The notes beneath the pieces are model-generated. The model was given only the letters and a program-made list of their open reading frames with translations. It did not search any database and was not told the origin of the DNA. A program made the position numbers and the translations under genes. A stretch of DNA of 61,252 nucleotides, the filler included, from Porpidia crustulata (lineage: Eukaryota): the NCBI GenBank assembly GCA_964255105.1. It is 7 parts of 7 records of this genome, joined end to end, with 100 filler letters (N's around TTAATTAATTAA, not from the genome) between each part and the next. Parts side by side here need not be neighbours in the genome. Positions count along the whole stretch, not along the records: positions 35,081 to 43,740 come from CAXUWE010001075.1; 6 more parts are not named here. One strand, 5' to 3'. This document shows, in pieces, positions 8,680-52,596 of this stretch. The first letter of the stretch is position 1; each line of letters starts with the position of its first letter.

Positions 8680-8779
8680 NNNNNNNNNNNNNNNNNNNNN
8701 NNNNNNNNNNNNNNNNNNNNNNNTTAATTAATTAANNNNNNNNNNNNNNNNNNNNNNNNNNNNNNNNNNNNNNNNNNNN
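8680..8779. other. Artificial contig linker N44-TTAATTAATTAA-N44
   Basis: Identical 100-nt spacer occurs six times; the core places stop codons in all six frames. Confidence 0.98.
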
Positions 8780-17450: not shown

Positions 17451-17550
17451 NNNNNNNNNNNNNNNNNNNNNNNNNNNNNNNNNNNNNNNNNNNNTTAATT
17501 AATTAANNNNNNNNNNNNNNNNNNNNNNNNNNNNNNNNNNNNNNNNNNNN
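17451..17550. other. Artificial contig linker N44-TTAATTAATTAA-N44
   Basis: Same 100-nt spacer. Confidence 0.98.
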
Positions 17551-26220: not shown

Positions 26221-26320
26221 NNNNNNNNNNNNNNNNNNNNNNNNNNNNNNNNNNNNNNNNNNNNTTAATTAATTAANNNNNNNNNNNNNNNNNNNNNNNN
26301 NNNNNNNNNNNNNNNNNNNN
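26221..26320. other. Artificial contig linker N44-TTAATTAATTAA-N44
   Basis: Same 100-nt spacer. Confidence 0.98.
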
Positions 26321-31385: not shown

Positions 31386-31829
31386 TTCTATGGACCTGCG
31401 CGGAGTATCTGATCATAGTAGTGATTGCAAGTTCATCATTGCTTGAAGGATGAGAGGAATAGCTGGTATGATAATTCTCAATTTGTAGCCTGAAGCAAGT
31501 GAAGCATTTCGCGTGGTTTTAATTAGGCGGGATTCGGTAGGGCAGAATGACTAAGCAGAGATCACTTGGCGCATTCGGTGTGAGGAACGAGTGAACCTCA
31601 GTCCGTGTTCATGAGACAAGCCCGCAGTAATCTCGACAAACTTTGCCATCACCTTGCTCCACCACCCCATCGATTTTATCTCTAAAATTGGTGGTACCAT
31701 CTCAGCAACATGTCAGCTATCGCTCAATGCCACTTTTACTAACACGCGACACTCCAGAGAGCTTCACAGCGGAGTGCTTCCACGCGGAGCATTATCCCTG
31801 CTCTCGGCAACTAAGAGGGGTGATGAGCC

Positions 31830-34800
31830 ATGTCGTCGCTGAAGAACAATATCAATTTCACCCACGCAGCTCTAGGTACCCAGATCCGTGATGCACTACA
31901 CGTTGATGGTTATCGTGCAACCCCTCCGAGGTCAAGGACACCCAACGGCCTCCATACGCCTGCGAAATTGTCCCATTTGGGCAGTGCAATTGAAGAGCTT
32001 GGCGCTGAGGAAGACGCAAAGTTGTCTGTCTTTAGGGAGCTATATGCGAAAAGTGAAGCAAGGCTGGAATCGCTCTTTGAAGAGGGAGACGGGAATGCTG
32101 CCAGAGAAGCAATACCTGAAGATAATCAAACGCGGGGCGATGACGGCGCAATTTCAGAGGAGGCACAGCATCAGATCGCTGCACCACCCAAGAAAGCTGC
32201 CAGGGCAATTGATGAGGATGACTATGACGATTCAGATGGCGAAGATGAGGCATCTGCCGTCGTGTCCCCCCTTAAGTCGAAAAGTGCCGCTGCCATTATC
32301 GTTACCCCGAGTGCTCCGTTCACCCCAGCGAAACGTGGGATATCTTCGGCTTTGGCAATAAATAAGCGCTCGTCGTCGTCAGGTCCAGTCAAATCATCAG
32401 AGGATGTACGCAAGAAGCTTGAGGAGGAGAAAAAGGCCACCGAAGACGCCGCAAAACGAAGCTTTCATACCCTGTTCTACACCCTCGAGAACGACCGAGA
32501 TGCCATGCTGGACCAGAAAAAGTTGGAAGAGTCTGAACGTCAAGTTGACGTGGAAATGGGCGGGACAGGTAGTGGTGGGTCCCATGCGAACGGTCATTCT
32601 TCCGGCAATGCACAACAAGGAACTTTGAGTCAAACAAACCTTGGAGCGTCGAGCTTGACGTTCAAACATCTCATTGCTCGCATTGACACCAAACGAGACC
32701 AAGTTCGGGCGTCTGATGCTGAGCTTAGGAGCCTCATGAGTGAGGTGAGGAAGAACAGGAGCAAATGGGCAAGCGAAGAGAAAGTCGGGCAAGAGGAATT
32801 GTATGAGTCTGCGGAGAGAGTCTTGACAGAGCTGAAAGCGTATACGGAGCACTCAACGGCTTTTCTCGGAAGGGTCAATAAACGGGAAGCCCCTGACTAT
32901 TACAATGGTAAGCTTGCCGTAGTACGTGATGAGAGCGTAGTAAATAACATCAATCTCTAGTGATTAAACACCCAATGGATCTTGGCACAATGACCAAGAA
33001 ACTCAAGGCAGTTCAGTACAAGTCCAAGCAAGAATTTGTTGAAGATCTCAGCCTCATCTGGGCCAATTGCTTAAGGTACAACGCCAGTCCGGAGCACATT
33101 CTTCGTCGCCATGCATTATTTATGCGTAAGAAGGCTGAGGAGCTTGTGCCTATGATCCCCGCCATTGTCATCAGAGACCGTGCAGACGTTGAAGCGGAAG
33201 AGCGTCGGCTGCTAAACGGCGATGCTGACATAGACGGCGGCGAAGAGAGTGATGACGAGCCGATCATATCTTCAAGAGGACGAAAGGCACCTGGCAAAAA
33301 GTCAAAGAAAGGCTCTGCAGCTAGGAAAGCCCCAGCTGGTGCTCACCAAGGCTCCCCTGCCGCCGATGTGAAACCGCCGTTACATGCCTCGAATTCTAAC
33401 GGGTTCGGGTCTAATCTTAAAAATGAGGCATTGCTAAGGGCGGACTCTGAGAGTGTGTTGGATGGAAGCATAAAGGACCTGTCAACCCCGCCGCCTGGAA
33501 CCATCACGCCTCTCGGGATCAATGGTGTTTTGGGTCATGGAATACATCACCATGGAACCATGGACATCGATGGGACAGAGCATTCGATCAATGGTGCCGG
33601 CTCCGTAATTGGCATCAACGAAGATGCTGAACGTGAAGACATCGGGTACAAGACCTGGAAGCAGGTTACAAAGAAGGATCGTGCTCTTGTCACAGCCGAG
33701 CGGCATCGCCTATTCAAAGGTGACCATTTAAATCCTGAAGAACCTGCGTTATTGCGTAGTAAGATGGGGATGAGAAGGTGGCTGCGAAAGCAGAGGCAAG
33801 CTGTTGCGGAGGGTACCCTAGGAAAGCCAGCTGCGGAGGTTGAATCTCTTCAAGTGCAGGAACCCGAGTCTAGTGGTGAAACATTGGCAGAAGGTATGGA
33901 AGGAGATGAAGAAAGGGTACTACCAGATTACTATGATACTCTGGCCGCTATGCCGGATCTCCCAGGTCGGCTTCGATGGATTGAAGATGCCGCAGGTGAT
34001 GTTCAAGATCCTTCCGGAGAGTTCCTGCGCATACTACCACAAGGACTGTTTATATCTCCGGAGAGTAGTTTGACAAAGAAGATAGAAGACAACATGCGGC
34101 AAATGCAACAGACGAGAAAGATTTGTTCGAAGATAGCCGTGGTGAAGCAAATGCAGATACAGGCACAGGTGAGTATTTCAGTAGCGGCACAATGCGATTG
34201 CTAATGAGACTAGATGTATCACGGACAATTCCAGAAACATGAGCCTGCACCATTTGCCGAGCAAGACATTGAGCCACTTGTCATGTCTGACGAGGGCCCT
34301 GTAATGTCGCCTTGGGTGTCTCGCGCCGCACTTCAACGCTCTGTGGGGGAGCTTTTCTTTCATGCAGGATTCGATGAATTTCAACCAGCTGCTTTAGAGG
34401 CAGTCACCGACATTGCCGGAGACTTTTTTATCAAGATTGCTCGGACATTCAATGAGTATATGCAGACATCAAAGATACCAGTTCCGACTCCCGCAGCAGG
34501 GGCATCGGCCGGCTTGGAAACCACTTGGAAACCTCGTTTCACGGCTGAAGAAATACTTTTGCACACCCTTCACGAAATTGGTTGTGATATGGAGTCACTC
34601 GAGACCTATGTCAAAGATGACGTTGACCGCAGTGGTACTAAACTAGCCGTCATGCATGATAGAATGAAAGCTCATCTTGCCGATCTACTTCGTCCTGCTC
34701 TCAACGATGCTGGTCCCGATGGCTCGAATGCATTCAACGATGGCAGTGAACAATTTGTTGGTGGCGACTTTGCAGAAGAGCTCGGAGAAGACTTCTTTGG

Positions 34801-34980
34801 TTTCAAGGAACTTGGACTTGATCAAGAATTGGGCTTGGCTTCCCTAGCAGTGCCCCTGCATTTACTGCAAAATCGCGTGCACAGGCACAACCAAGCCCAG
34901 AATCCAAGGTACGCATCCTTTCCACTTCCACCCCCGTCAACTTTTGAAGACTGATACCTACTCTCCAGCTCGTCCTCCTC
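31830..34980 (+). CDS. spt7: SAGA complex bromodomain subunit Spt7, 3'-truncated by the linker; introns ~32909-32960, ~34169-34213, ~34909-34968
   Basis: [49 protein letters not shown], bromodomain [29 protein letters not shown]...WANCLRYN, histone-fold region [33 protein letters not shown]. Confidence 0.96.
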
Positions 34981-35080
34981 NNNNNNNNNNNNNNNNNNNN
35001 NNNNNNNNNNNNNNNNNNNNNNNNTTAATTAATTAANNNNNNNNNNNNNNNNNNNNNNNNNNNNNNNNNNNNNNNNNNNN
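34981..35080. other. Artificial contig linker N44-TTAATTAATTAA-N44
   Basis: Same 100-nt spacer. Confidence 0.98.
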
Positions 35081-36885
35081 GAATTTCTTCTGTGATGGGT
35101 TTATCGCGTACATAAAACGAATCAGATATCTCAGCGATGAAAACAAAAGCTATCGCTGATCACTCACTGAGCTGACATTTAACACACCAAGAAATACAAC
35201 AGTTTATTTGAACCTCTGGGCACAATCGGAGGAGGAGCTTAGTGCAACTGATATCAGTGGTATTTTAGTCTGCGTGTCTGTGTCGTGGGCGTCCTAATGA
35301 TCAAAGCCTTGTTAGGATGTGTATGATAGAGAATGATATCATGGATCAAAGGAGTTTTGGAATGTTGGTGCATGTTGGGGAATATCCTAACGAGTTCGGG
35401 ATAATCATGTTCCCTTGGTATCCGTCCGAGTGCCTCAATCAATCCATCATGGCACAAAGCGCAGCCGTATCCCCACCAGCGACATTCGTTCGCTCCTTTT
35501 GTTTCGATATAGACCGGCCTTGAAATTACCTTCAACACGACCTCTTCATCGTACAAAATCTATCCCAGCTCACTTCCTTGCTTCCGACATCAGACGAGTA
35601 GCTCTTCCTGGGTTATGTTTCCGGAGACACTGGAGTGGCAGTGGTTATGAAAGCTTATCTTGTTGTTAATGGGATTGTCTATCTGCGCGAATACCTCTTG
35701 TGTATGCTTTTTGTATGAAGAAGGTGAGTTGGGTATACGGGTTCCCCTTTCGTTCACGTCTTTGTTGAAAATAATACAACCATCATCCTTTAATGAGATC
35801 ACTAAGTTTTCTTAGTTGCTGCACTAGTCAGCTCATGCTTCGAGGTCTGTCTTATAGCATCGATATTTCAATAAGGTACATCGCGCTCTCTCGCTCTCCA
35901 TAAATGTCTCGACAGGGGTGAAAAGCCGGGGCTCCACCTTCAAGAAAGGAAATAGCTGCACACCAGCAGCTTCAGCACCAATCAATTCTGCGGAATCTTC
36001 AAAGATTGACCATAGCACTGTCACCTTATAGGCTTCCACTTCTGCGGCCATCTATGCACCAGAGCCAGCTGTAACGAAGCCTACAAGCTCTCTTCTGCTG
36101 GAGAAATGCTAGCTGTAAGTATTGCTTTGTAGTAAGAAGCCGATCGACAGAAGACAGATGCAAAGACATATAAACAAGCCCAACTTCAGTCATTCTATTT
36201 TCTCCGAGGTTTGGAAACCCTTAGGGCAACCGTGAAAAATAAGCAATGACTTACACAAAAGGGCACAATCAAAGAGAGGTTCAAAGCGACGGCAGAAACG
36301 ACATAAGTACATGATGAACATTCTCGGTATTGGTATCTATACAACAAAGGACGAAGACCTGCAGCTATCATATGAGTCCGCTCTGAAGACGGTGTATGCA
36401 TCTTTGTAGACTTTAAAATCATTGCAAAGGTCAGCCCTTATCCTTCACCTCTGATATTTGAACTCTCCCCACTAGACTTATGGTAATGAATATACATTTT
36501 TTCATATAACTTATACTAGAAATTTCCTATCAATCTGAAGAAGGTTCGGAGACCTTCTAGTACAGCACCAATTCTGTGATGTGTCGTTAATTGCTAGGAT
36601 GCCAGTGACCTCTGCCGTGCTTGTGGCATCTGATAGATGACGCTGCCAGCGCTAAATTTTAGTATTCTATACTCTATGGTATCTTATCATTTCGGCAGGA
36701 CCTTCCTATTACGGCTGGCACCATCGATGATCCGAAGACTTCTGCCGTACTGGTAGAAGAGTCATAAAGTATTCAGTCTGTGGCCAGCCGGATATATCCG
36801 TGCATATATAGAGCTTCAAGGACTTCAACAAGGCAAGGTTTCTCCATTGTGTAAAGTCACTCAAGAAAACAGACCTCGATTGGAA

Positions 36886-37794
36886 ATGGGCCGAACATTG
36901 GTATATCCGAAGCAACCTTTCTCTACTACCCATCGCTATGCAAAACGCGGTTAGTCCTCGTTTCCTCTCCAAACCCAGATTACCTCTCGGAAAATGAACG
37001 CTTCCTTGATGATACATTGATGTTGATTTCGATTTTTGTCAGCCACTTACGATCTCCACACGATCCATTCCATCATAAACAGCACCCCGGTACTCCATGT
37101 CTCTTTTAATCCTGCAGATCCAGCCCAAGGCCCATTTCCCACCATACTTCCTATGGTTGGTGTGGTGGGATCTTTCGAGCGTCCAAGTGCGGATCTAAGC
37201 GAACCGCTAGACTGCTACCTTCATGGCTATGTTAGCTCAAGGATGATGAATCTGGCGCGGGGAAACGAGGGAGAAGGACTTCCGCTCTCAATCGCGGCCA
37301 CAAAAGTCAATGGCATAGTTCTCAGTCTGACGCCGAACTCCCACAGCATGAATTATTCGTCGGCAGTCCTCTTCGGATACGCAACGCGGGTGACAGACGA
37401 TGAAGAAAAAGTGTGGGCGATGCAATTGATAACGAATTCCGTAGTCCCAGATCGTTGGGAGAATAGTAGGGTACCTCCTGATGGATCTGAGATGGCTTCA
37501 ACTTCGATCTTAAGGGTTCGGATTGTGAGTGGGAGCGGAAAGATAAGAAACGGAGAACCCCATGATGACAAGAAAGACTTGGAGAGGGAAGATGTGGTAG
37601 ACCGCGTTTGGACCGGAGTCCTGCCCATTTGGCAGACAATTGGGTATCCGGTGGCTGGGAGCACTAATGCCGTAGCTGAGGTACCAGAGCATGTTCGAAC
37701 TTTCCGGAATGAGACAAATGCCGGCAATGAAGAGTACGCCAAAAAAGCAGCCATCGAACCGCCATCAGAGCCGAAAGATGAGGAATCTGGGTAA
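36886..37794 (+). CDS. Flavin-nucleotide-binding split-barrel protein (pyridoxamine 5'-phosphate oxidase-like / NimA-like); one intron ~36949-37041
   Basis: MGRTLVYPK...RYAKR/ATYDLHTIHSIINSTPVLHVSF...PTILPM...YLHGYVSSR...KVNGIVLSLTPNSHSMNYSSAVLFG...SGKIRNG.P.DD..D...VWTGVLP. Confidence 0.88.
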
Positions 37795-38141
37795 CGATAG
37801 AAGTACTTAGTCACCAAAATCATACTTCGTCTTGTCTCTACGGCGATGACTATTCAAGATAGCTTCGGCCGTTGTCCCCGTCGTCATAGCCTTGTAGTAG
37901 TCTCAACACCAACAGATCTTCTACTATGCTTTTTGCCTATCCAGTGAGACTTGTAGGGACTCAATAAAATTCTTCATCATAGATCAGAGATATCAAACAG
38001 CAGAGCAAGCCCCTAGAGTTTTGCACGAGTTGAAGTAATCAGTCTATGCTCCATCGTAGAATCATGCCATCAGACCAGCGACCGATTTGATTTCTTTTGA
38101 CTTTATCATGCAGCATAACAAACAGACAGCTGCACAACATT

Positions 38142-38741
38142 TCAAGTACCCGATAAGGCTTTCGCAACAAGACTCTTGGCGCGATCCGACATGGGAACTT
38201 CAAGTGCGAGCTCATGACCTCTGTCTGTCATCTTGCCCCACGTCTTCTGTAGAATCTTGATGATCTTATCCTCATCGTGCTGCTTCTCAAACTCCTCGAA
38301 TTGGTCATCCAAGAAGACCAGACAAGCCACATCCTCCAACGTCTGGGTATCCTCATCCTTCCTCAGATCTTCTTTCCGGATCAGAGCGGCAACTCTATCC
38401 GCGTTCTCCTTCGAAAATCCGCAATCCGAGCATATCTGAGAAGCCAACTCCGCTTGACGTTTTTTGAGATACGTCCGCCACGCGTGATAGCCAATCTTGG
38501 TCATAGGATACGAGTCGCGAGGGACCTCCCAGCGCCTGAAGTGTTGTGCACGTATCGCTAGACGCAAGGTGTAGGGTGCTGCCGGATTACGCTTGTCAAG
38601 GTAGCTGCTCATCTTCTGGCTGTAGTGAAGCTCATATGGCTGTTCGGAACCATTGACTTCAACTAGCTTGGGATCAAGACTGTGAGCTTCGTCGATCAAC
38701 TGGATCGCTCGCTCAAATCTAGACTCTAGAGAATCGGACAT
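38142..38741 (-). CDS. DUF4202-family protein (HD-like helical fold), single exon
   Basis: AIQLIDEAHSLDP...PYELHYSQKM...LAIRAQHFRRWEVPRDSYPMTKIGYHAWR...TQTLEDVACLVFL...ILQKTWGKM. Confidence 0.9.
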   Translation of the reverse strand: MSDSLESRFERAIQLIDEAHSLDPKLVEVNGSEQPYELHYSQKMSSYLDKRNPAAPYTLRLAIRAQHFRRWEVPRDSYPMTKIGYHAWRTYLKKRQAELASQICSDCGFSKENADRVAALIRKEDLRKDEDTQTLEDVACLVFLDDQFEEFEKQHDEDKIIKILQKTWGKMTDRGHELALEVPMSDRAKSLVAKALSGT

Positions 38742-39741
38742 CTTTATGAACGACTGCTTCTCTCTTCAAAAATGATTTATCAGGGTGACATGGCTGGTGG
38801 TTAAGACTACTGTAATTACAACGATTCGTGGCCTCATACCTCTACAGAATAATGTGTATTTCAAATTTAGCGTCTGGAATCTTACACCAGTCCCATCTCT
38901 ACCTAGTATTCAAGTGGCACGACTTAGCCCAGATCGGCCCGGGGCAGCTACTCTAGTGTGCGGCCCGGGGTCTAGGGGCCGTGGGGCCTAGATAAGGAGA
39001 CGGGAGATCGGGTGGTGCCACCCTTTTCAAGATTATTAGAAACAACCAGCACCGCCCTCAGGCCTTGATGATGAACGCCCTGTTGCTTGCCTCTCCTGAA
39101 GCCAAGTCCTCCAGGTTCAGACGCCAAGATGACCATGACTGAGGCACATTTTACCTCAACCCAACCTGAACACAATATCGGTCCCCTGGCATGGGTGAAA
39201 CAGGAAGATCGTTCTCCCCCAAGAGGCTCAAGCCACTTATGATGTGGACGAAGCAGATACCTTACTGTGATCTCGACACCCGTCTGCAGAAGGAGCGACG
39301 CTAAGGCTAACCTGAGACCACAGATGATCCACCAGCGAGCACTGATCAGACGCCCAGCCTGACAGCCGTCTGCCCCGCTTTGCGAAGGCCCCCAATCCTG
39401 CATAAAGGTTCTGCAAATGGCGAAAGACTGGCATTGATTGTTGCTGTAAAACGTGATTCTTTAACTCTAATCCTCGTACTCATATGGCAGGCTAGTGGCT
39501 TCAGTGAACTACGAGAGGTTCTAGGCCGTCGAGTATGTTCGGCCTGTGCTCGTATGTCTATTACTGAAAGAGACGTTTGGACCATATCGATTCATTCTTC
39601 GCTAGTCGAAGTTCGGTTCGTTAATCGTATACCGTTGCAAGCCGAGTCTCTACTACGAACGTCGTGGGGTTTCAGAAATTCCTCGAAAGCAGAAGATCTA
39701 TTTGAGGCGCCATAAGACATCCCGATTTCAGTATATTCACC

Positions 39742-42097
39742 ATGAACGGATTTTCAAGCCCAGCATCGAACGAGCCTTCCGATAAAGAGCTCACTCTTGA
39801 CAATCTTATCAAAAATAACATTAGGATTTCAGAAAATTCTACTCGGTTTATGGTGAACGATGTTGCATCTTTCGCGGCTGACCTGCTCGATTTCAGACAA
39901 ATTATCACCGTGGATGATGTCGAGCAGCTTTCGCGCCACGAGGTAAGAGGCAAACCACTCCAAACCATAGGAAACCGCCCTCAAAGACGCTTAGATCCCG
40001 GATTCTAGCCTTTTAGATGCTGGTAGCGAGAAAAGCCGTCAACGATTTGTTCATGCCCGTGTGATCAGTGATGAAGCCAGTGATATGAAGAAGGGAGACG
40101 AAGATCTATGGGTGGCTTTTATTAAACAAAAGGTTTTTGGTGGCTGGGGTAGTTCAAAAAATCCCAAGCGACCCATCGATTACTTCTGTCTAACAGGAGG
40201 CATTGCCATGTGATTGCTCCTAATCCGACAGTGGACTCTTATTAATGACTACTAGGAATGGTCCTTCGGTGCTATGGAAGGAAGCTGCTCGCCACAGGCA
40301 CTCTCCAGCAAAAGATATCCTTACTGCGCCAAAGCCTGATATCTACTTTGCTATACAAATATATGAAAGCCTGCCGGCGCCCTCGGGGTTCTTGAATCGA
40401 GCCCTCCAAAATTTCACCTTCGACTTCTTAAATTCTCATCAGGATCTTCACTACAGTCCATCAAAAAATTGCAGTCAACCTACAGGCGACTACCACAAGC
40501 ATCAAGTCTGCTTTCCGGTTGCCATCGTTGAAATCAAGCATGAAAGCGCCAGCAGTACAGAGATACGGCACTGTTATTGTCAAGCAGCAGATGCAGCTTC
40601 TTCGGCGCTCGCTATGCTGTGTAGTCTGAATCAACACAACCCAAGGGCACGACATTGGCATGCAGACCAACACGAAATATCGCCAATCGTGACTTTCACA
40701 TTCATTGGATACAACGTCAAAGTATGGCTGGCGTACGTTTCCAATTTCGCGTGCGCTGAGGACGAAGAACATATGCATAATTACGTTAGCCATCTTAAAG
40801 TATCAGAAACCTTCGAACGCAACACTAATTATTTATAGCACATGCAATGCATTTGGAGTGGTGATATACGTAAAGTCTGGGACGCAGCTCAATTACGTAG
40901 CATTGTTGATAAAGTCGCAGAATGGTTTTTCTACATTTATCGACCCTGGATATCGACATGTCTGGAGCAATGGAAGGCCCCACAGGTTGAGACACGTCTC
41001 AAGACGGTGCATGAACTATACAAAAATTCCAGGAGGCTATCGCAAGTCGACATAGGATCAACTGCAAGCAATAAAGGTGATGGCGTAGCCCGAATTTCAG
41101 CAGAGTCTTTAACGCCATCTTCTCTATTTTACAGAAAACCAGTGAAGGAGACACCGCCTTCGTTGTTTGGCGGCTCTTACCCTGGGTCTAGAAGTATTGA
41201 AGCTACTTCAGACTCTTCTGTGTTTGGATTGGGGCAAGCCAGAAGTAGAGGGCAACTGTCGGAAATCAATCATAGGAGTAGATCAGACTTTGAATCCATC
41301 GACAGACCATCTGATTTTAACCCTTTCCGCCCAAGAAATTCCAAAATTGGAGAGAGGACACCGACTGAAGGAAGCACCGATTCGCCTACTTCTAAAGCCA
41401 AGGACAGGCCATCTTCCAGAAACAATGAAAGACTGTCTACTGGAAGCTTTGGCTTATCTACATCCCAAAGTAATGATAGACCGCATACTGGAGGTGCTTT
41501 CGGTTCGACGCCTTCCAAAAGCGATGGAAGACCGCATACTGGAGGTGTTTTCGGTTCGACGCCTTCCAAAAGCGATGGAAGACTGTCTCCTAGCAGTCTT
41601 TTCCGCCCCTCTTCCGGGAGTCTCTTTGGTGCGCCTGTATCTAACAACAATACAAGACCATCTACTAGAATTTTTGGTTCATCTGCATCCAACAACAATG
41701 ATAAGCAACATACTGGAGGTCTTTTCGATTCGATGCCTCCCAAAAACGATGGAAGCCCGTCTCCTGGCGGACCCTTCGGCGCCCCTTTTTCTAAGGGTCT
41801 TTCAAATTCGTCTCTATTCAACAGTGATGTAATCCATCTACTACAACTTTCAGCTCGCCTGCTTCCAACCAGAAGGAAAGCCCATTTACCAACGGTTCCG
41901 TTTCGCCTTCTTCCGCGAATGAGGAACGACCGTCTCCATCAAACAGTATACGTTCCGCTTCAACCTCTTCCGAAGATATTGAACGGCCATCTTCCGGTGA
42001 TGCATCTGGCTCGATTCCTTCTGAAAACGAGGAACCGTTCTATCGTTCTAGCGCATCTTCCATCGGAAGAGACAAATATGAGAAACCCCGGCAGTGA
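39742..42097 (+). CDS. Hypothetical multi-exon protein: PD-(D/E)xK nuclease-like domain plus a Ser/Pro-rich FG-repeat C-terminal tail (probable frameshift near 41830)
   Basis: Exons from ATG 39742; core PKPDIYFAI...FPVAIVEIKH...CYCQAADAASSAL...IVTFTFIG..VKVW...MQCIWSGD...IVDKVAEW...RPWI; the tail carries 8 FG dipeptides. Confidence 0.7.
41478..41583 (+). repeat. Coding 51-bp tandem repeat (RPHTGG[A/V]FGSTPSKSDG x2) inside a longer degenerate array (~41430-41790)
   Basis: AGACCGCATACTGGAGGTG[C/T]TTTCGGTTCGACGCCTTCCAAAAGCGATGGA occurs twice with one mismatch; a diverged copy lies at ~41706-41757. Confidence 0.93.
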
Positions 42098-43439
42098 GGC
42101 AGCGAGAGCCGGGTATTACTATCGATGACCCTAGCTTTCTATCTCTTGTCTAATCCGTCAAGCTAGTATTGAAGCGGGGAGACCGGCTTGACCTGTTTCA
42201 CTTTAGCTGATTGAAAACAAGGCGGTATGCCGATAGCCGCCCTCGTTGGCAAGCGTCGCCACTCTTAATCTGTAGAGGGTATTTCCAAGTCAGAAAATAT
42301 TTCGAATACCTCCGAGCATAGTGTCAAACTATTCCGAACAGGTTGTTTCCATACTTACTGTGCTCCCCACTATCACATTTAGGCGTACAATATCACGGAA
42401 TTTCCACCACAGCTAAAATAGAGAAAGGCACTGACATAGTGGCATGGCTAACGTGTGGTGGGATATATTTTGGAGTACTTGGTTCTCCTAATCTAACAAA
42501 AAGTCCAAGGCAGAAAAGCTAGAACAGAACTTCTCGTTACATCGCACGGCTGGTCGGATCTCACCCCTCCATTAGTCTAACCTACACCCAATAGGTCTCC
42601 TGTGAGGGGTGATTAGGGGATTTAGAGAACCGACCCAGTGAGCTGGGTAAATAACGTTCGGATTGAGCTCTTCGTTATTGAGGCAAGCGTCTACCATTAA
42701 CGAACAGTTTAGAAATATGTAATCTAGAGAGTTGGACGCTTCCAATACCCTACCTTGCGGCCGTCCCTGGGAAATTTCTCCAGATCCATAAAATCCCTTC
42801 GATAATAGCTTCCGTCTCTACAGTCAGTCTCAGCTCCTGGAAAAGTGGACTTTGTCGAGACGTAATTCAATCATATCATGTTAGTAATAAGGCACGGTGA
42901 AATCGGTCGGTCGGGAGGCAAAATCGAGCTGTCTGAAGCCACGCAGGCCTTTCTTGAAAGGACTCAGAAACAAGAAACTTGCCTCTATGTCCCTTTGAAT
43001 TAATGTCACACGACTCGGAAATGCTGCGTTTCCTGCCTGCCTGTCGCGTATGCTGCTAGTGCTGCCGTTTTCTCTCACGGGATACACACGATTTCCAAGC
43101 CCGACTCGGCATCAAGCTCAGCACTCGGCCATCACCCAGCCCTGAAGCAAGTAAATCCCTCTGACCCTGAATCTGGGCATAAATCTATTGATGGAGGGGC
43201 TTGGATTAATCCACGCGACATCACTGCGCTCGAATTTGATGCGCGAAGGCCGCCTTTACAACAACAACAATGTATGTCTTTTCACAGCTTCACATCGAGT
43301 CACTCCGAACAGTTGATATTGCAATTTGATGTATATCATATTTTTCACCATCCGCTATACATCTTCTCCACTAGTGGTGGTTGCTCGACTCTCTGCTGAC
43401 GAGGCTATCCAGGTCAGCGAGATTGGGCAAGCCAATACT

Positions 43440-43620
43440 CGCTTGGCAAGCGACCAAGGTGAGCTAGCTGGCTCCAACATGGCATTGGTGACACTCGGCT
43501 GCGGGCTTCTAGGGCAAGCTGTCCTGACCATACGGGTACTATGTACGACAGAAGTGCCAACTTGGGGCTCACGCCCCATCGACGCAGCTCTTATGCAGTG
43601 TCGACAAGGTACTAGTGGGC
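43440..43620 (+). pseudogene. Fragment of a fungal hypothetical membrane-protein gene
   Basis: ALVTLGCGLLGQAVLTIRVLCTTEVPTWGSRPIDAA recalls a recurrent fungal motif (L.LG..LL.QA.I...L....IPTWSSNPL); no complete gene is visible. Confidence 0.3.
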
Positions 43621-43740
43621 AGCAGACCCGGATAACGTACAGTGTGAAGACGTCTATCGTCCAACGTCTCCTTCCTGCTCCACTCCTCCCTGCTCCACTC
43701 CTCCGCAGACCATCTTGCCCCCACCCTTACCCTCCATAAT

Positions 43741-43840
43741 NNNNNNNNNNNNNNNNNNNNNNNNNNNNNNNNNNNNNNNNNNNNTTAATTAATTAANNNN
43801 NNNNNNNNNNNNNNNNNNNNNNNNNNNNNNNNNNNNNNNN
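43741..43840. other. Artificial contig linker N44-TTAATTAATTAA-N44
   Basis: Same 100-nt spacer. Confidence 0.98.
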
Positions 43841-44067: not shown

Positions 44068-45904
44068 TCACTCACCCCGCAGGAGTATCATCCTTCGCAC
44101 CACATCCACCCAACCACTCCGAATCCGGCAACACACAACCAACGCCACCTGACTCCTGCAATCCCAAATCTTCCGCACCACCAACCCCGCCCGCTCGACA
44201 ATCTCCTCGAACTCCGCCGGCGTGCGCTCGATACCGTTGATAATGGCCATCGTCGTCAGATCGCGCTGATGCGACCACTGCGCAAAACACCCATAGTTCG
44301 CCGGGAGCGGGTCCGGGGCCGGTGCGATCTGTGCGCAGCCGAGCGTGGTGTTCATGACTTGGTCGCAGATCAGCAGGCGCGAGGTCCGGCTCATGCTGAC
44401 GCAGGCCGCGGCCAGGATCCGGACGCAGTATTCGTCCGTCCAGTCGTGTCTGGTGGATCGAAAAAGATGTTAGTGGGCTTGCGGATAGGGTGGCATTAAA
44501 CCCACCGTCGTTGCCCGAGCCGAGCGTGCCGGAAATATATGCAGCAAACTTACATGATGTAGCGAAGCCAATAGACGTCGGCTCCTTGCACCGGATTTGG
44601 CTCGAAGAAGTCATGCGGCATGAAGGAGACGAGACCGTTCTCCAGGGCAGCTGGGCTCTCCTTGGGTCAAACGGCATGCTTCGCCTGTTCCAGGACAGGC
44701 GCACGGTCTTGCACCACGAATCTGAGCTTCGGGTAAAGCTGCGACAGCTGCAGGCAAAATCCACCTAAAGCACATAAGCCCCAGAAGTAGAAGCATGAGG
44801 TAGAGTTGAGCGTTGAACTCACCAACCACGCCTCCGACATCAACGACCAGTCCATCTCCGAGATCCTTCCAATGGAAATCTGTATCAGGTCAACCTTGTA
44901 GTGCTACGGCCTACCTTCAACGACGGCGATGTGCGAGCCCAAGGAGTTCTCACCATACAAATGAGCCGTCCCCGTAACGCGTCCTCCTCCCAGTATCGCG
45001 AGTCCAAAGGTCGCATGCTCCGGCCTGGGCACGAGTCCTGCAGGATCCTGCTCTTTCAAAGCGGTCTCGAAGTCGGGTCCGAAAGGCCCCGGATAACCTG
45101 TCCCGCAGGACTGCTGCAGGGCTTCGACCGGCACTTTTCTTCCAGCCATTCCCAACGAAGCTTTGTCGTGCCGACGGCGTCCTGAAAGGCGGTCTGACTG
45201 ACATCGTACGAAGAACCCTTCTTGGAGCAGTTCACAAGTGCTCTGGGGAGGTAATCGGATGCACTGTACAGATCGAAATCGCTTTATTCATCGCTAGCAT
45301 CTTGCGACGTATTGTCAGAATCAGATCTTCAGCTGAGAGAACATCTACAACAGCGCTATATATGCACGAAGAGATTCATTGTTCATCAGCGCGGCGGAAA
45401 TGACATTGTTTGCAAAGACGTTTGGCCCGACCTCTTTGAATATATGGTTCGAGCAAAGGCACCGTAGCAATCGCGCTGCATTTGGTTAAGGTCGACCTAT
45501 GTGCAAGTTGGGACAGACCAACATACAGAGCTTCCGCAACTCCACCCCAACGGAGGAGCTCAGATCATCCATGGAGATCCCGCCAGCGTCGCCGGCCAAG
45601 ATGTCGGGGATGCGCAGCGCCGCGGCGATGTGCAACGCACGCGACTCATTGTACTGCGACGACACCTCGAGCAGCCGCGCGCTCGGGGTGGCAACCAGCT
45701 CTGTGAACATGCCGGCCGCCGCTAGCAGGATCCGCTGCGCGTCAAATAGCTCCCGCGTCGCGAGGTCTTCGCTGCCGCTGACGCCGCGGGCGTGAGGGCT
45801 CGCGGGATGGGCCCAAGCTTTGATGACGTTCTTCACCGACCCTCGACGAGCTCGAGCAGCTGCAGCAATTTGTGTGCATCGGCGACCGATTTCTGGAACT
45901 GCAT
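44068..45904 (-). pseudogene. SAM-dependent O-methyltransferase (Methyltransf_2/COMT-like), multi-exon, disabled
   Basis: RLLEVSSQYNESRALHIAA, VVDVGGGV/G, FVVQDR, MPHDFFEPNPVQGADVYWLRYI, HDWTD, SRLLICDQVM, NGIERTPAEF. Lesions: frameshifts near 45838 and 45135, and an in-frame TGA at 44667-44669 (AV*PKE, W expected). Confidence 0.88.
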
Positions 45905-46492
45905 CTTTCTCGCTTGGTCGTGCCCGATCTCGAGCGGTGAGGATGTGCGTTCCAAATTATTTAAGCAAAGCCTAGGGCGAAGGACAAGGTTTTTCAGTGG
46001 ATTCGTCTGGAAGCGTAGTGCCAGCATGCGTTCCCGCAAATGGTTGATGGTATACTCGGGGAAATGTCGATACGGGGGTCAGGGTGCTTGGAAAGAGGTG
46101 TGGACCTGAGCCATCGAAGTGCTCGGGGTACAGTCAGGGGAACTGGGGACCTCCTTATGTCCAGGGATGCTGTATGCAGGGTACCAATTAGAAACCTGCT
46201 TGTGCGATCACCCTGCGTGGGACTTTGTCAGATCAGTGCCCTATTGCTCTCATTACGCGGGAGAATATCCGAATCGGGTCCGTCATGGCACTTTGTGCTT
46301 GACTAGGACAGGGGCCTTTATGTTTCTAAACATGGGGCATCTGGCTTTCGACTCTGGACAATCTGGTGCAGTTGAAACAGCATCAACGTAGCAATGGAAA
46401 AGCGCGTGAATCTGACATTGGAACATCTCTACGCTTCGAGAATCCGCAGCCGAGTCTAAAATCCTTTGAGAGAATTCCTCCTGCGCAAACCA

Positions 46493-49400
46493 TTAACGTG
46501 GAATATGTCCGCGCTGTTCCCACGACTCGATGTAACGGTTCACCAGCGTCAACCCGACACCGTCGCACGATCGCATCGTCGGCGATACTCGTCGCGACTG
46601 TTGCGTCTCCAACACCAGCCCACCGCCCGAGAGTCTGCTGAAATCGTCTTGGAAGAAATTCAACAGGGGCGTGACAAAGCCGGTGTTCACATCCGCTCGG
46701 GTCCGGCGTATCCACTCATCAAACGGAACGCGCTTCGGAAGCTGCAGCTTGTAGCCCAAATATTGAATCAATTCGGGCCAAGGCTGCCGGACAGGATTCT
46801 CCACGTGATAGAAGAGGTTCCCCGACCGTTCCGTCAAGAGAATATTCAGAACAGCCTGCGCCGCCATGTCGATCGGAAGCCAGGAGAAGCTCTGTGGGAT
46901 GTGTTAGCAACGCGCGGGGTGATGAAATCTTTTGCAACTATATGCATGATACTTAATCCTCGCAAATCGTGCAGCGCTCCAATGGCTTGGGAAGCCTGAA
47001 GGAGCACGGGAATATGCTCGGTTGGATTCCAGTAGCCGGAAATGGAAGATCCCGCGAGTTGGCCGATTCGAACAATGACAGGCTCAAAGTGATTGCTCTC
47101 AAGCTTCGCCACGTTCATTAGGATCTGCTCACACACCCACGTGGCTTCGGCATAGCCCATTGGCACTGGGCTACATGGATCTTCCACAGGCGCTCCGGCC
47201 ACCATCCTTCCCGGATAACGTCCAGCAACAGCGATAGACGATAGGAGAAGTATTTTTGGTTTCCTTGTCTGCTGCAGTGTACATGCTCTTCTGGCGAAGT
47301 CGAGAAGATTTATGACCACCCGCACCTGTGATTCGAGTGACTCTAGCCCCCGCTGGAAATCCATTGGCCAGGCGATGTAGGTAACCTGGCTACCTAATTG
47401 CTCATACACCTCCGAATCAAGTCCAATATTGGCAGCTTGAGTATCGGCTTGTAAGAACTCGATTTTCGCCCACAAATTCTCTTGGAAAATCACGCCTTGT
47501 CGGGCATTTGTAGCCATCTGGTGTTGCTTGCTGTCCGGACCAGATCGGGATTCACCCTTGCCTCTTTGCGAGTGCCGGTTGATTCAGATGATACGCTCGA
47601 TCCTTTTGTTACGAGCAAGCTTGGCCAGGATGTTCGTCCCTAAGCTCCCTGTTGAGCCTGTCAATACCACAACCAGGGCTTGTTGCTGCTCGAACGAATC
47701 CAAGTAAACAGGAGCAATCATGTATTTGTCTCTGATCGTTTCCATCTGGCGTATACGGGTGACATTGTCTCTAATATACGTGTTATTTCCGCTTTCTTTA
47801 ATTGCTCCAGCAAGCTGGGACACGCTAGGGTGACGGTAGACGAAGTCTGGCCGTGACCTGCCTGGAATAATCCCAGGAAATCTACTTATATTTGCAGCTA
47901 TACCAAGATGTCGGGATAGGCGAGTGGCTTCGAGGGAATCCATACCGAGTTCAAAGAAGTCGTCTGTAATACTCCAAGAGGCAGGCGGAACGCGGTCCTG
48001 AAAACACTTTTGCACCAGCGCTTCGAGACTTGCTTCGAGATGGTGTTCATCGAGGTACACGCGTTCTTGGTCTGCTGTCAATTTCTCCAGGTCCTCATAT
48101 GCCGCGCTTATCTCCTGAGAGAATGTCTCGTAGGCTTCTTTACGCATGATCGAGCCTTTGTCGGATCTCGGAGTCGCCTTGTGAATAGGCTTGACAAGAA
48201 TGGAATCTTGGGAGACAATTCGTGCATGGCCGTCCAAGCTCGTATTAATTTCTTGAATGATTGACCAGACCGCGTCTACGAACCATTGATGTTCATGGGA
48301 AGCAAAACGATCCTCCGGCTCCACAAGCACTCCAACTTCGTTTCGGTGTTGTCCGAATACTATTGCGGTCTTGATAAAGTCTGTACGGTTGAGGCCGGCT
48401 TCCAAAACTTGCGGTAAAACCTTCTCTCCCGTTGCTAGAATAATTACGTCATCAGTTCGTCCCAACACCCGTACTTCCTTGTGCGTGCCTGAAGGGTTGC
48501 AATCCAGTAGATCCTGAATCTCAAAAGGGTGTTCCGACCCAAACGGACGTCCCGCTAGTCTGAAAAGCCCGGTAGCTTTCCCATTCTCCTTCACTTCATT
48601 CGACTCAAGGTTTTGATAAGTACGGAGCCGAAGATAATGCCAATCATATGTCTCATCAGGGACACAAATGTAAGCAATAGCCCCGATCTCAGTGACGCCG
48701 TAATGATTGAGGAGTTTGACGCCCATTGTGGCTAAGAAATCGCCAACCAGCGGCTTCAAGGAGCCGCCACAAATTGCAATAAAGTCCAACGAAGCCAGTG
48801 CATCACGGTAGTTCTGAACTGAACTGACAGCCATGTCTTCTAGAATTGTTGGCACTGTCAGAAGCGAGCATGCTCCAGTCGTCTTCAACAGTCCGGTTAC
48901 TGGCTCCGCTGCACGTATCACAGCTGATGATGGGAGGCAACAGATTTTTCCGACTGACAGACTCAGGCATGGCGCCAGAAGACCGAAACCCTAACAGTGT
49001 TTAGTACGTACTCGCACAAGTTCTGATTCGGTAGACTCACGTGGTAGAGGGGCAAAGTGGAGACATTGAGGCGGCCGTCGGCCTCTTCAGGCTCCAAGCG
49101 GTGGCAAGCCGCGTATCCTAGCAGATATCGGTGTGTCAATGGCACCGGCTTCGGTAACCCAGTCGTGCCAGATGAATGGAGGATAAGTGAACCTGGAAGA
49201 TCCTCGAACGGTGTCTTGTACGTGAATGCCCTCTCCGGAGCAATATTGGTTTTCCTGGAGCACGACTCGATTAGGACTTGATATGGTGCCACAATCACGA
49301 TAGCAGGCGCTTTTTCCTCTTGCCCAAAGTTTCGTACAGCTTCAACTGCTGATCGCTCTGTTCTTGTCGAGCAAATGATCACTCGTGCTGAGGCTTCTGC

Positions 49401-49916
49401 GAGTAAGTGTGCTAACGCGGGAGTACTCAGGCGAGCTGAAAGTAAAACGACCTGGGTAGGACTGTAAGCGGAAAATTCAAAAGTAAGTGCTGTGATCTGT
49501 ATTGCACCAACCGGAATATTCATGTGCAGTAAAGCGCAAAGGTAGACAAATAATGTCAAGTCGCTTTCCAGAAACAGCGCGACAGCCATGCGTGTCTGAC
49601 AAGAATCAACTGCCTGCTTCGAGGTAGCTCTCAAAACGTTGATTTCAACCCATTTTATGCCCTCTTTGACAACTTCGTACAACTTGGCAAAAGAGATTCT
49701 CGTGAAGCCAGTAAAGCAACCTCTTTTCCTCTCTTCCTGCCACGCAAAACTATGCTTTGGATTAAACTCTGCATTGAATACAATAAGGTCGGGCAATGAG
49801 CGAATGGCTTTCTCTTCCGACGCAGAAGGTGGGCTCTGCAGTTTCATCGATGGCCTCAGGAAGGGCCTGTTGCCCGAGACTGATTGCGGACATGCGCCTT
49901 CTCGTAAGAATGACAC
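46493..49916 (-). pseudogene. NRPS-like A-T-R carboxylic-acid reductase (AscB/StbB-like), disabled
   Basis: SLPDLIVFNAEFNP, A domain ILHSSGTTGLPKP, NHYGVTE, GRTDDVIILATGEKV, PRSDKGS; T domain FFELGMDSL; R domain VLTGSTGSLG. Lesions: in-frame TGA at 47584-47586 (II*INR), YxxxK changed to YAEAT, residues missing before AWPMDF, and the last intron donor reads TTAAGT at 46956. Confidence 0.9.
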
Positions 49917-50460
49917 GATGGAAGAAAAGCCGTAACCAGGAGAAAAGGAGCAGGGGATATTATGAAGCAGAAGCTCCAGCTAAGGGCAAAAAGAGAAGAC
50001 TTCTAAAGAAATCTGTTCGCCTCAGCAGTTTGACTTGGGCATACGCTATGGATGAAATCAATCTAGGGTGAAATTCCGAGCTCAAAGACGGCTCCTGCGC
50101 AATGAAACTCGCCTTAGTACAGAATGGCTGGGGTCTCCGCTGGGGACCGGGTTAAAGAGCTGCGTACACTTGAGTGAAGATCCAATGTCTCCCACCGCTT
50201 ATGATATCCATAGGGACTATCGGACAAATCAGAATACGCAGGTCCCATCGCATGGTTTCTTCGGGAAACCTAGGCCACGACTGCACGTCGTAATGTAGAC
50301 CTCTACATCCTGGTATTCGCGGTGACTTTCTCGGTGAACCATCAGTCAGTCTAGGCCAATGCCACATCAGTATTCGTATAGATAGTGCAGAACGTCCGGC
50401 TCTCTGCACAAGTTGTGATTACCTAAGTATCGTACCTCAACGCATGTAACTGGCGACATA

Positions 50461-51150
50461 ATGACTCGCGTCACCTACGTTGCGTTCTTCGGTGGACAGG
50501 GTAATAGTATACTTTTCTCCGGAGAAACGGCGGCTGCAGCCCTCAAGAAGGCGAAGTCCTGCCCTACAGCAGCGTTACTGATCTCACGCTGTCATTCTGC
50601 GTTCCTAGATGAGCTACTAAGTGCTCGGACAGCCAAGTCGGCCTCAGTCCTAGACGAGCTTACGCAAGTAATAACGCCAGAAGACCTTCTCAACCCAAAG
50701 ACAGCTCACAATAACCCCATCATCCAAGGATTGACGTTGTGTCTGCACCAGCTACTCGAGTACTTGACATATAGTCTGCCCCCGAATTCTACACTAGAAA
50801 GCGCTCTTGTTCAACACACCAACGAAGCAGTCGGGTTCTGCTCCGGCATCCTGCCAGCCATCGTCGCTAGTTCGGCGAAAACAGTCTGGCAATTCATCAA
50901 TTGCAGTATTCAAGTTGTTCGGTTTGGGTTTTGACTAGGCTACCGCGTAGGTGAGTATTGCGAAGAGCAATTGGGTCATGGATGGAGAGGACAGGGCCCT
51001 TGGGCGATGGCCCTAGTTGCGAGAGACGTCGATGTGGTAATGCTGCAGGAGCGCGTCGCGCTTTTCAATGCCGAGAACCCATCTACCGCTCTGAGTGCGT
51101 CATGTTTCAATCTCATTAATTCAAAACCACTTCAAAAGGGCGCTCTGTGA
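50461..51150 (+). pseudogene. N-terminal SAT domain of a non-reducing (orsellinic-acid-synthase-type) PKS; truncated, with no KS downstream
   Basis: AFFGGQG...LLISRCHSAFLDEL...NNPIIQGLTLCLHQLLEY...AVGFCSGILPAIVASS (GxCxG) ...RFGF*LGYR...PWAM. TGA at 50932-50934 where W is expected; similarity ends ~51090-51150. Confidence 0.8.
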
Positions 51151-52496: not shown

Positions 52497-52596
52497 NNNN
52501 NNNNNNNNNNNNNNNNNNNNNNNNNNNNNNNNNNNNNNNNTTAATTAATTAANNNNNNNNNNNNNNNNNNNNNNNNNNNNNNNNNNNNNNNNNNNN
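52497..52596. other. Artificial contig linker N44-TTAATTAATTAA-N44
   Basis: Same 100-nt spacer. Confidence 0.98.

Follow-up and report, generated by a model that had tools for sequence, protein, structure and literature searches.

We analysed a stretch of 61,252 nucleotides (nt) of Porpidia crustulata DNA (GCA_964255105.1), referred to below as the window, and describe here a gene at positions 39742-42097 that encodes a protein with a nuclease-like core and a long tail carrying phenylalanine-glycine (FG) motifs. The gene lies on the plus strand and was modelled from stop-to-stop reading frames and direct reading of the DNA. Five exons encode a protein of 719 amino acids (aa), with a coding sequence of 2160 nt (719 codons and a stop) and four introns of 52, 46, 54 and 44 nt, each bounded by GT..AG. 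The boundaries given in the original prediction, an ATG at 39742 and a TGA ending at 42097, agree with this model. Coordinates are collected in Table 1.

Table 1. Positions of the gene, its parts and other features of the window
Feature	Positions	Strand	Remarks
Exon 1	39742-39942	+	aa 1-67; ATG at 39742; conserved N-terminal 'L..L..N.I' element; exon 1/2 junction agrees with Letrouitia subvulpina P0004
Exon 2	39995-40209	+	helical N-terminal part of the core, including conserved E..W helix; exon 2/3 junction '...GGIAM|NGPSV' corresponds to '...GGVAMNGPSV' in P0003
Exon 3	40256-40784	+	catalytic heart of the PD-(D/E)xK-like core: PKPD, VEIK, CYCQAAD
PKPD	40329-40340	+	aa 164-167; D167
VEIK	40527-40538	+	aa 230-233; E231, K233
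CYCQAAD	40572-40592	+	aa 245-251; Q248
Exon 4	40839-41828	+	final core strand and long helix (MQCIW 40842-40856, YRPW 40938-40949), then FG tail from 40986
Degenerate 17-aa (51-nt) repeat array	41448-41780	+	contains six FG motifs and the variants FR and FD; two central copies 98% identical
Intron 4 (proposed)	41829-41872	+	44 nt, GTAATC...CAG; required to enter the conserved last frame
Exon 5	41873-42097	+	Ser-rich C-terminus; TSSED...EPF[YH]RS.AS.IGRD motif kept in P0004; stop ends at 42097
Out-of-frame stretch	42084-42128	+	encodes NPGSEAARAGYYYR; runs past the stop at 42095-42097
Pyridox_ox_2 gene	37027-37794		upstream neighbour within the contiguous stretch
DUF4202 gene	38142-38765	-	upstream neighbour within the contiguous stretch
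Large gene with Bromodomain and Bromo_TP matches	31827-34954	+	long Ser/acidic low-complexity regions
Gene piece, O-methyltransferase-like	44068-45956	-	beyond the 43741 linker
Gene piece, AMP-binding/PP-binding reductase-type	46493-49979	-	beyond the 43741 linker
Gene piece, possible polyketide synthase start	50419-50934	+	beyond the 43741 linker

The first three exon junctions agree with the proteins of two public relatives, designated P0003 and P0004, from Letrouitia, a genus of lichen-forming Teloschistales in which orthologues are found in two species. P0003 is 72% identical to the window protein over 100% of exon 3, and P0004 (Letrouitia subvulpina) is 65% identical over 70% of exon 3. 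Both public gene models appear to contain errors: the P0003 model apparently continues through the intron that corresponds to 40785-40838 and stops too soon, and that of P0004 skips 74 core residues, including the CYCQAAN helix. The 44-nt intron 4 is the least certain part of the predicted exon structure, and the frame downstream of it is conserved in P0004. Close to the stop codon, the out-of-frame stretch at 42084-42128 encodes the very sequence with which the L. subvulpina orthologue ends in frame; the window thus differs in frame by one base just upstream, and this shortens the end of its protein. The bases of this stretch are the same in the Logan contigs of run X1, which match the window in five pieces with no differences at the DNA level and break within the 51-nt repeat array.

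One exon encodes both the final part of the core (MQCIW...YRPW...EQWKAPQ) and the greater part of the FG tail. Because exon 4 is a single open frame, core and tail would be translated together, and the tail is in frame with the core, as had been proposed. An antisense open reading frame at 41270-41938 (222 aa) was rejected as a gene, being the reverse reading of the repeat array.

Fold and family of the core

The folded core comprises about 364 aa (residues ~1-364). A read-through of exon 3, intron 3 and exon 4, which has an in-frame stop in the intron, was rejected because the intron is no break in the gene. Instead, we modelled window exon 3 by itself and P0005, the closest complete relative, whose identity to the window protein is 48% across 229 columns. 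The AlphaFold2 model of P0005 was compared with the PDB by Foldseek and by an exhaustive structure aligner. Its core block has predicted local distance difference test (pLDDT) scores mostly above 90, and the chain is disordered from about residue 424, with pLDDT below 50 in the tail.

The two best matches of the exhaustive aligner are human mitoribosome chains, 3j7y_5 (Z score 12.5, root mean square deviation (rmsd) 7.2 Å, 247 residues aligned) and 7a5f_s3 (Z 11.5, rmsd 5.1 Å, 237 aligned), which we take to be mL37 and mS30/mL65. Rows 3 to 21 are, judged by title, all nucleases or proteins of the restriction-endonuclease fold. DrdV stands in third place (7lo5; Z 9.1, rmsd 3.1 Å, 138 aligned), and the further matches include BpuSI (3s1s; Z 8.5, rmsd 4.1 Å, 154 aligned), NucC (6p7p; Z 7.3, rmsd 5.5 Å, 188 aligned) and, in lower rows, SgrAI, TT1808, HsdR, NgoMIV, Bse634I, Cfr10I, EcoRI and others. 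The P0005 model thus shows the alpha-beta-beta-beta-alpha-beta core fold of restriction endonucleases (PD-(D/E)xK). Within the model, an Asp stands at the start of one strand and the (D/E)xK motif on the next: D195 lies just ahead of strand 196-201, and E259 and K261 lie in strand 251-261, with Q276 in the helix 267-294. The PD-(D/E)xK-like core of the original prediction is therefore matched by the model, with D, ExK and Q on the expected strands and helix, and in the window the PKPD, VEIK and CQAA motifs were found at the places assigned to them.

The signature is nearly invariant among the relatives, with D in 105 of 109, E in 146 of 148, K in 141 of 147 and Q in 144 of 148 (96-99%), and the window protein retains all four residues, with 66 residues from D to K. 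Because these residues are conserved, catalysis can be proposed, and judging from the sequences we consider it reasonably probable that the core is an active nuclease. The contrary view, in which the core has no catalytic activity and a structural role only, as in the mitoribosomal chains, draws on the two large-subunit chains that rank first in the exhaustive comparison and also head the Foldseek list. Such a dead fold would not be expected to keep D, E, K and Q in nearly all relatives, and the rmsd to the ribosomal chains is high at only 7% identity; we regard this view as the least probable of those considered here.

Several observations weigh against the assignment of fold, family and function. 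Foldseek gave no PDB match to the P0005 model at E≤0.001, and the top two matches of the exhaustive aligner are ribosomal chains and no enzymes. Window exon 3 by itself was modelled with a pLDDT of 84.2 and matched the same kinds of protein, at Z scores of at most 5.1, which is within the stated noise range of the tool. The exon translations of the window have no Pfam match to the core at E≤1, with the introns splitting the domain, and the orthologue P0003 scores 20 bits on the Pfam family DUF7924, for which the cut-off is 27 bits. The Asn of the QAAN motif, present in 145 of 148 relatives, is Asp in the window (QAAD).

The core belongs to a large and widespread group of proteins. An exhaustive HMMER search with P0003 found 281 cluster representatives at E≤0.001, of which 67 were at ≤1e-10 and 12 at ≤1e-30. 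Thirty representatives were looked up and 25 had names, all of them 'hypothetical', 'uncharacterized' or an automatic golgin-type label. The relatives looked up come from five classes of Pezizomycotina: Lecanoromycetes (Bacidia, Xylographa, Wetmoreana, Villophora), Dothideomycetes (Setomelanomma, Hortaea, Zasmidium, Bogoriella, Lophiotrema, Cucurbitaria, Lojkania, Recurvomyces), Eurotiomycetes (Aspergillus, Pyrenula), Leotiomycetes (Xylogone, Tricladium, Phialocephala) and Sordariomycetes (Fusarium). At least two divergent paralogues per species are present in Xylographa soralifera, X. pallens and Bogoriella megaspora. Word-indexed searches of proteins had low sensitivity in this case (2 matches; with the profile, 6 of 8000 scored candidates; 3 matches), and a metagenome scan with a single protein matched 48 pattern stretches, none of them a relative.

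Among 148 aligned relatives, 63 match DUF7924 (PF25545) at E≤0.01 (best 9.4e-9), and 2 match PDDEXK_12 (PF20516) at the same threshold. P0005 scores 24.3 bits on DUF7924, aligned to positions 17-214 of the 225 in the profile. Only one of 40 long relatives reaches the DUF7924 cut-off, with eight matching in all; since, in addition, the exon pieces of the window are unmatched and P0003 lies under the cut-off, the core appears to be a divergent branch of DUF7924. On PDDEXK_12 the best relative is P0050 (E 3.4e-5, 24.1 bits). The window pieces do not match this family, and because the matches of all relatives stay below its cut-off of 27 bits, PDDEXK_12 looks like a sister family rather than one to which the core belongs. 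In a protein Atlas searched by features and by structure, the core adjoins the clusters of both families, with scores of 0.94-0.96 and template modelling (TM) scores of at most 0.81, normalised to the query part, for DUF7924 neighbours, and a TM score of 0.67 over 247 aligned residues for the PDDEXK_12 structure row. We conclude that the window core is a divergent member of DUF7924, or stands at its edge, and that this uncharacterised family of Pezizomycotina is related to PDDEXK_12. Taken together, fold and family membership are very likely to be right.

Two further observations concern the core. In the Atlas, clusters of fungal protein kinases are among the structural neighbours through their non-kinase portion (TM 0.50-0.55), which might connect the core to proteins that combine a nuclease with a kinase, SPOK for example. 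Four cysteines are conserved in the family (138 of 146, 129 of 146, 118 of 147 and 65 of 69), and in the window Cys codons lie at 40512-40514 (VCFP), 40572-40580 (CYC) and 40848-40850 (MQCIW), positions that were derived from the motif coordinates. Metal or iron-sulphur sites occur in some nucleases of the restriction-endonuclease fold, and the conserved cysteines might form such a site.

The FG-bearing tail

The tail spans residues 365-719 and was predicted to be a Ser/Pro/Gly-rich region of about 250 aa; the composition holds (22% Ser, 10% Gly, 9% Pro, no Cys or Trp), but the measured length is ~355 aa. All eight FG motifs that had been named are present: SLFG 425, SVFG 444, GSFG 519, GAFG 536, GVFG 553, SLFG 578, RIFG 594 and GPFG 628. 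They lie in a low-complexity region, and its composition together with the low pLDDT of the P0005 tail suggests that it is disordered. The regular distance noted between the later motifs is real, with Phe 519, 536, 553 and 570 and then 594, 611 and 628 spaced 17 aa apart, and it stems from a 51-nt tandem repeat. Tandem Repeats Finder reports this period with 2.1 copies and 98% matches at 41478-41583 and with 2.5 copies and 88% at 41478-41603, and more diverged copies surround the two central ones. Because the central copies are 98% identical at the DNA level, the array is young.

Eight FG motifs are more than composition predicts (1.76 ± 1.22 expected; none of 10,000 residue shuffles reached eight). 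This statistic overstates the number of independent events, because six of the eight motifs are copies of one duplicated 17-aa unit; outside the array, two of ten tail Phe residues precede Gly.

FG motifs are also present in the aligned tail region of P0004, in differently built repeats of ~9 aa rather than 17 aa. Between the window protein and P0004, 192 of 289 residues are identical in the core, 159 of 332 (48%) in the tail and 8 of 15 among the tail Phe residues, and the last three FG motifs of the window are absent at the matching positions of P0004. We surveyed the 28 stored relatives with at least 150 aa after the core, which form 26 distinct clusters. FG-enriched tails occur in five of these: P0102 (Setomelanomma; 15 FG observed, 2.1 expected), P0143 (8 observed, 1.45 expected), P0127 (Hortaea; 6 and 1.5), P0050 (Wetmoreana; 5 and 1.5) and P0060 (Villophora; 4 and 1.1). 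In P0102, several FG motifs fall in each 64-aa unit, and its SLFG/AFGS arrays are strongly nucleoporin-like; P0143 contains FGANSFG. A core-only tree of 41 rows was computed by a quick search, with Shimodaira-Hasegawa-like approximate likelihood ratio test (SH-aLRT) support only; it left out P0004 and P0143, in which parts of the core are missing, and duplicates of the window and Hortaea proteins. On this tree three relatives without FG form a group with the window (support 100), and the distribution of five FG-rich rows against 21 others requires at least four changes. From the five clusters and the four or more changes it follows that FG tails recur in a minority of relatives, apparently independently, and the expectation that FG tails would recur in homologues is thus borne out in part, since the three nearest complete relatives, Bacidia and Xylographa among them, have no FG in their tails.

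Single relatives carry other modules. At the C-terminal end of P0060, residues 612-660 match Chromo with 25.0 bits, against a cut-off of 25.1, and the end of P0005 has an AT-hook-like PRGRPRK at residues 593-600. The latter motif occurs in one of 157 stored proteins and was rejected as a family trait, being an anecdote. Another conserved block is common to the C-termini of P0050 and P0060.

The tail had been read as bearing the hallmark of FG-nucleoporins. The Pfam family Nucleoporin_FG (PF13634) matches it with E 2e-6 and 29.0 bits, under the cut-off of 32.2 bits, and a look-up of the tail in the language-model Atlas returned no nucleoporin neighbour, its top score of 0.75 being at noise level. 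No relative among the 148 matches Nucleoporin_FG at E≤0.01, and on the exon translations no other Pfam family, a pore-anchoring domain included, was found at E≤1. A selected role of the FG motifs is further weakened by the origin of six of them in one unit, by the 21 of 26 long tails without FG enrichment, by the FG-free tails of the nearest complete relatives and by tail Phe residues whose conservation does not exceed that of the tail as a whole.

Two rival explanations of the motifs were considered. In the first, the FG repeats arose neutrally, when a 51-nt unit prone to slippage, and by chance encoding one FG, expanded in a fast-evolving disordered tail; the tail would then serve as no more than a spacer, a solubility region or a regulatory region, unconnected with the pore. 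The near-identity of the central copies, which marks a young array, the scarcity of FG outside it, the loss of the last three motifs in the orthologue and the lack of resemblance to any nucleoporin cluster all fit this explanation. It is favoured, too, by the FG-free nearest relatives, by the lack of extra conservation of Phe and by the nucleoporin score below threshold. Yet FG-rich tails stand at no fewer than four separate places in the tree, both Letrouitia-type orthologues keep FG while their repeat units differ, and P0102 has several FG motifs in each of its much longer units; recurrence of FG tails in one family would be expected to lie far above the proteome background. We consider a neutral origin unlikely, though by no means negligible.

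In the second, the tail mimics FG-nucleoporins and docks the nuclease in the FG meshwork of the pore or on importin-beta-type receptors, where it would police or attack nucleic acids in transit. The 17-aa spacing of FG in Ser/Thr/Gly/Asn-rich linkers is consistent with such mimicry, as are the Nucleoporin_FG match and the recurring FG tails of the family, including those of P0102 and P0143. On the other side stand the score below the Pfam cut-off, the small number of FG motifs without GLFG or FxFG types, the many charges in the linkers, the missing pore-anchoring domain and the absence of FG from most relatives, and we find full mimicry distinctly unlikely. Docking at the pore or on karyopherins, taken as a specific claim, is also unlikely on the sequences at hand, if marginally less so, and functional selection of the FG motifs in general is a tentative proposal to which we give somewhat less than even weight.

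Overall, with a confidence just above even, we favour the explanation that the gene encodes a DUF7924-family protein of nuclease fold, probably active, with a replaceable, fast-evolving disordered tail. We propose that the core would be a nuclease that depends on divalent metal and has its substrate, nucleic acid, in or at the nucleus, and that the tail would serve as a disordered, replaceable targeting or interaction module. Its FG units may act as multivalent hydrophobic stickers, which could confer affinity for FG-binding surfaces (transport receptors, the FG meshwork of the pore) or lead to self-association. Three observations favour selection on the FG motifs and make a targeting role of the tail and a nuclear site plausible: FG arrays arose repeatedly, the orthologue keeps FG with different units, and single relatives carry chromatin-type modules.

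Genomic surroundings and novelty

The sequence that is certainly contiguous with the gene runs from 35081 to 43740. Linkers of the form N44-TTAATTAATTAA-N44 occur about every 8.77 kilobases (kb), at 8680-8779, 17451-17550, 26221-26320, 34981-35080, 43741-43840 and 52497-52596, and because the window seems to be made up of segments that were joined or masked, genes across a linker need not be genomic neighbours. Within the contiguous stretch, the DUF4202 and Pyridox_ox_2 genes lie 1-2.7 kb upstream of the nuclease-fold gene, and the 1.6 kb downstream of it contain no long open reading frame. The locus had been described as gene-poor and without transposon termini; the flanks indeed lack terminal repeats, but the two upstream genes do not fit a gene-poor stretch. 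Tblastn with four relatives found one locus and hence no second copy in the window. Past the 43741 linker, the gene pieces at 44068-50934 suggest a secondary-metabolite cluster. The large gene at 31827-34954 looks like an SPT7-type transcription cofactor.

These surroundings bear on the possibility that the gene is selfish or a conflict gene, either a Spok-like killer or a nuclease on a mobile element. SPOK killing uses a PD-(D/E)XK domain (PMC6660238), DUF7924 is listed with the families most dispersed in copy number in the Neurospora crassa pangenome (PMC13412767), divergent paralogues exist in Xylographa soralifera, X. pallens and Bogoriella megaspora, and the contigs of two homologues with FG tails measure 5.9 and 7.3 kb, one of these homologues ending in a chromodomain. 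The window protein, however, has no kinase or antidote domain, weak Nucleoporin_FG being all that Pfam returns. Its gene is present once in the window without flanking terminal repeats, has four introns of spliceosomal type and adjoins ordinary genes. Orthologues are kept in two Letrouitia species at 65-72% identity, and the D-to-K spacing of 66 residues differs from the 22 of SPOK3 (PMC6660238). We therefore think a selfish origin very improbable.

The original prediction had named this architecture as the best candidate in the stretch for an undescribed system. The core belongs to or borders on DUF7924, with its hundreds of cluster representatives, so for the core this does not apply, whereas the FG-tailed architecture was not found described. 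What is already known is DUF7924 as a large, fungus-restricted Pfam family. In the literature searched, which excludes subscription journals, we found no description of a DUF7924 or PD-(D/E)xK protein with FG repeats, no paper on PDDEXK_12 or PF20516, and none joining mL37, mS30 and an endonuclease. A single paper was found that names DUF7924, ranking it among the families most dispersed in copy number in the N. crassa pangenome (PMC13412767), and we found no function described for the family. The restriction-endonuclease fold with a conserved D-ExK-Q catalytic signature and the repeated gain of FG tails thus appear to be new to the literature searched.

The restriction-endonuclease fold of the core and its D-ExK-Q residues, which hardly vary, give DUF7924 a testable biochemical hypothesis. 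FG repeats outside nucleoporins are, to our knowledge, rare, and those known tether factors to pores or drive condensates. If the FG-equipped nuclease acts in this way, it would represent a new means of bringing an enzyme to the nuclear gate. Should the arrays prove neutral, the family would still offer a natural series for the origin of FG repeats by tandem duplication. We speculate further, while holding it to be quite improbable, that DUF7924 proteins are Pezizomycotina-wide active nuclear nucleases with swappable C-terminal address tags (FG arrays, a chromodomain, an AT-hook-like motif), and that FG arrays, having evolved no fewer than four times, serve to keep the nuclease on transport receptors or within the permeability barrier of the nuclear pore. 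Such a nuclease would form a checkpoint resident in the pore, or else a weapon, directed at nucleic acids that are invading or selfish.

Comparison with known systems

The two mitoribosomal chains share the longest structural overlap with the P0005 model, but they are structural proteins of the ribosome, with 7% identity and an rmsd of 5-7 Å. The restriction and defence nucleases (DrdV 7lo5, BpuSI 3s1s, NucC 6p7p, SgrAI 7s8d, HsdR 3h1t/2w00, NgoMIV 1fiu) have the same core fold, at Z scores of 9.1-5.9 over 129-188 aligned residues, and the same succession of D...ExK on adjacent strands followed by a Gln-bearing helix. In contrast to them, the family protein has a helical insert of ~50 residues between the D and ExK strands and extra N-terminal helices, and the window protein, encoded by a eukaryotic gene with introns, continues into a long disordered tail. 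Identity to these nucleases is 7-12%, and no PDB chain is meaningfully matched at the sequence level, the best E being 0.082, for P0003, and the profile giving no match.

Resemblance to DUF7924 lies in the matches of 63 of the 148 relatives and in the adjoining Atlas clusters; the window differs in that its pieces are unmatched at E≤1 and its orthologue scores below the cut-off. For PDDEXK_12, the likeness consists in the P0050 match and the Atlas TM score of 0.67, and the difference in scores that all remain below 27 bits. With FG-nucleoporins the tail shares spaced [hydrophobic]-FG motifs, ~17 aa apart, in a Ser/Gly/Thr/Asn-rich low-complexity region. It departs from them in having only eight FG motifs, none of the GLFG or FxFG type, and in a nuclease-like core that is the only folded part of the protein.

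The comparison with Spok drivers made in the original prediction extends to the fold but not to the domain arrangement. The PD-(D/E)XK domain of SPOK3 is needed for killing, which the K240A substitution abolishes, and its best HHpred match is HsdR of V. vulnificus (PMC6660238). SPOK and the window protein are both fungal proteins with such a domain beside unstructured regions, and HsdR (3h1t) also matches the P0005 model, with a Z score of 6.5. A kinase domain C-terminal to the nuclease domain was not found at E≤1 on any exon translation, the C-terminal half being of low complexity; neither a cysteine cluster nor a coiled coil was detected in the window protein, and the D-to-K spacing differs. 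We therefore place the likeness to SPOK at the level of the superfamily only.

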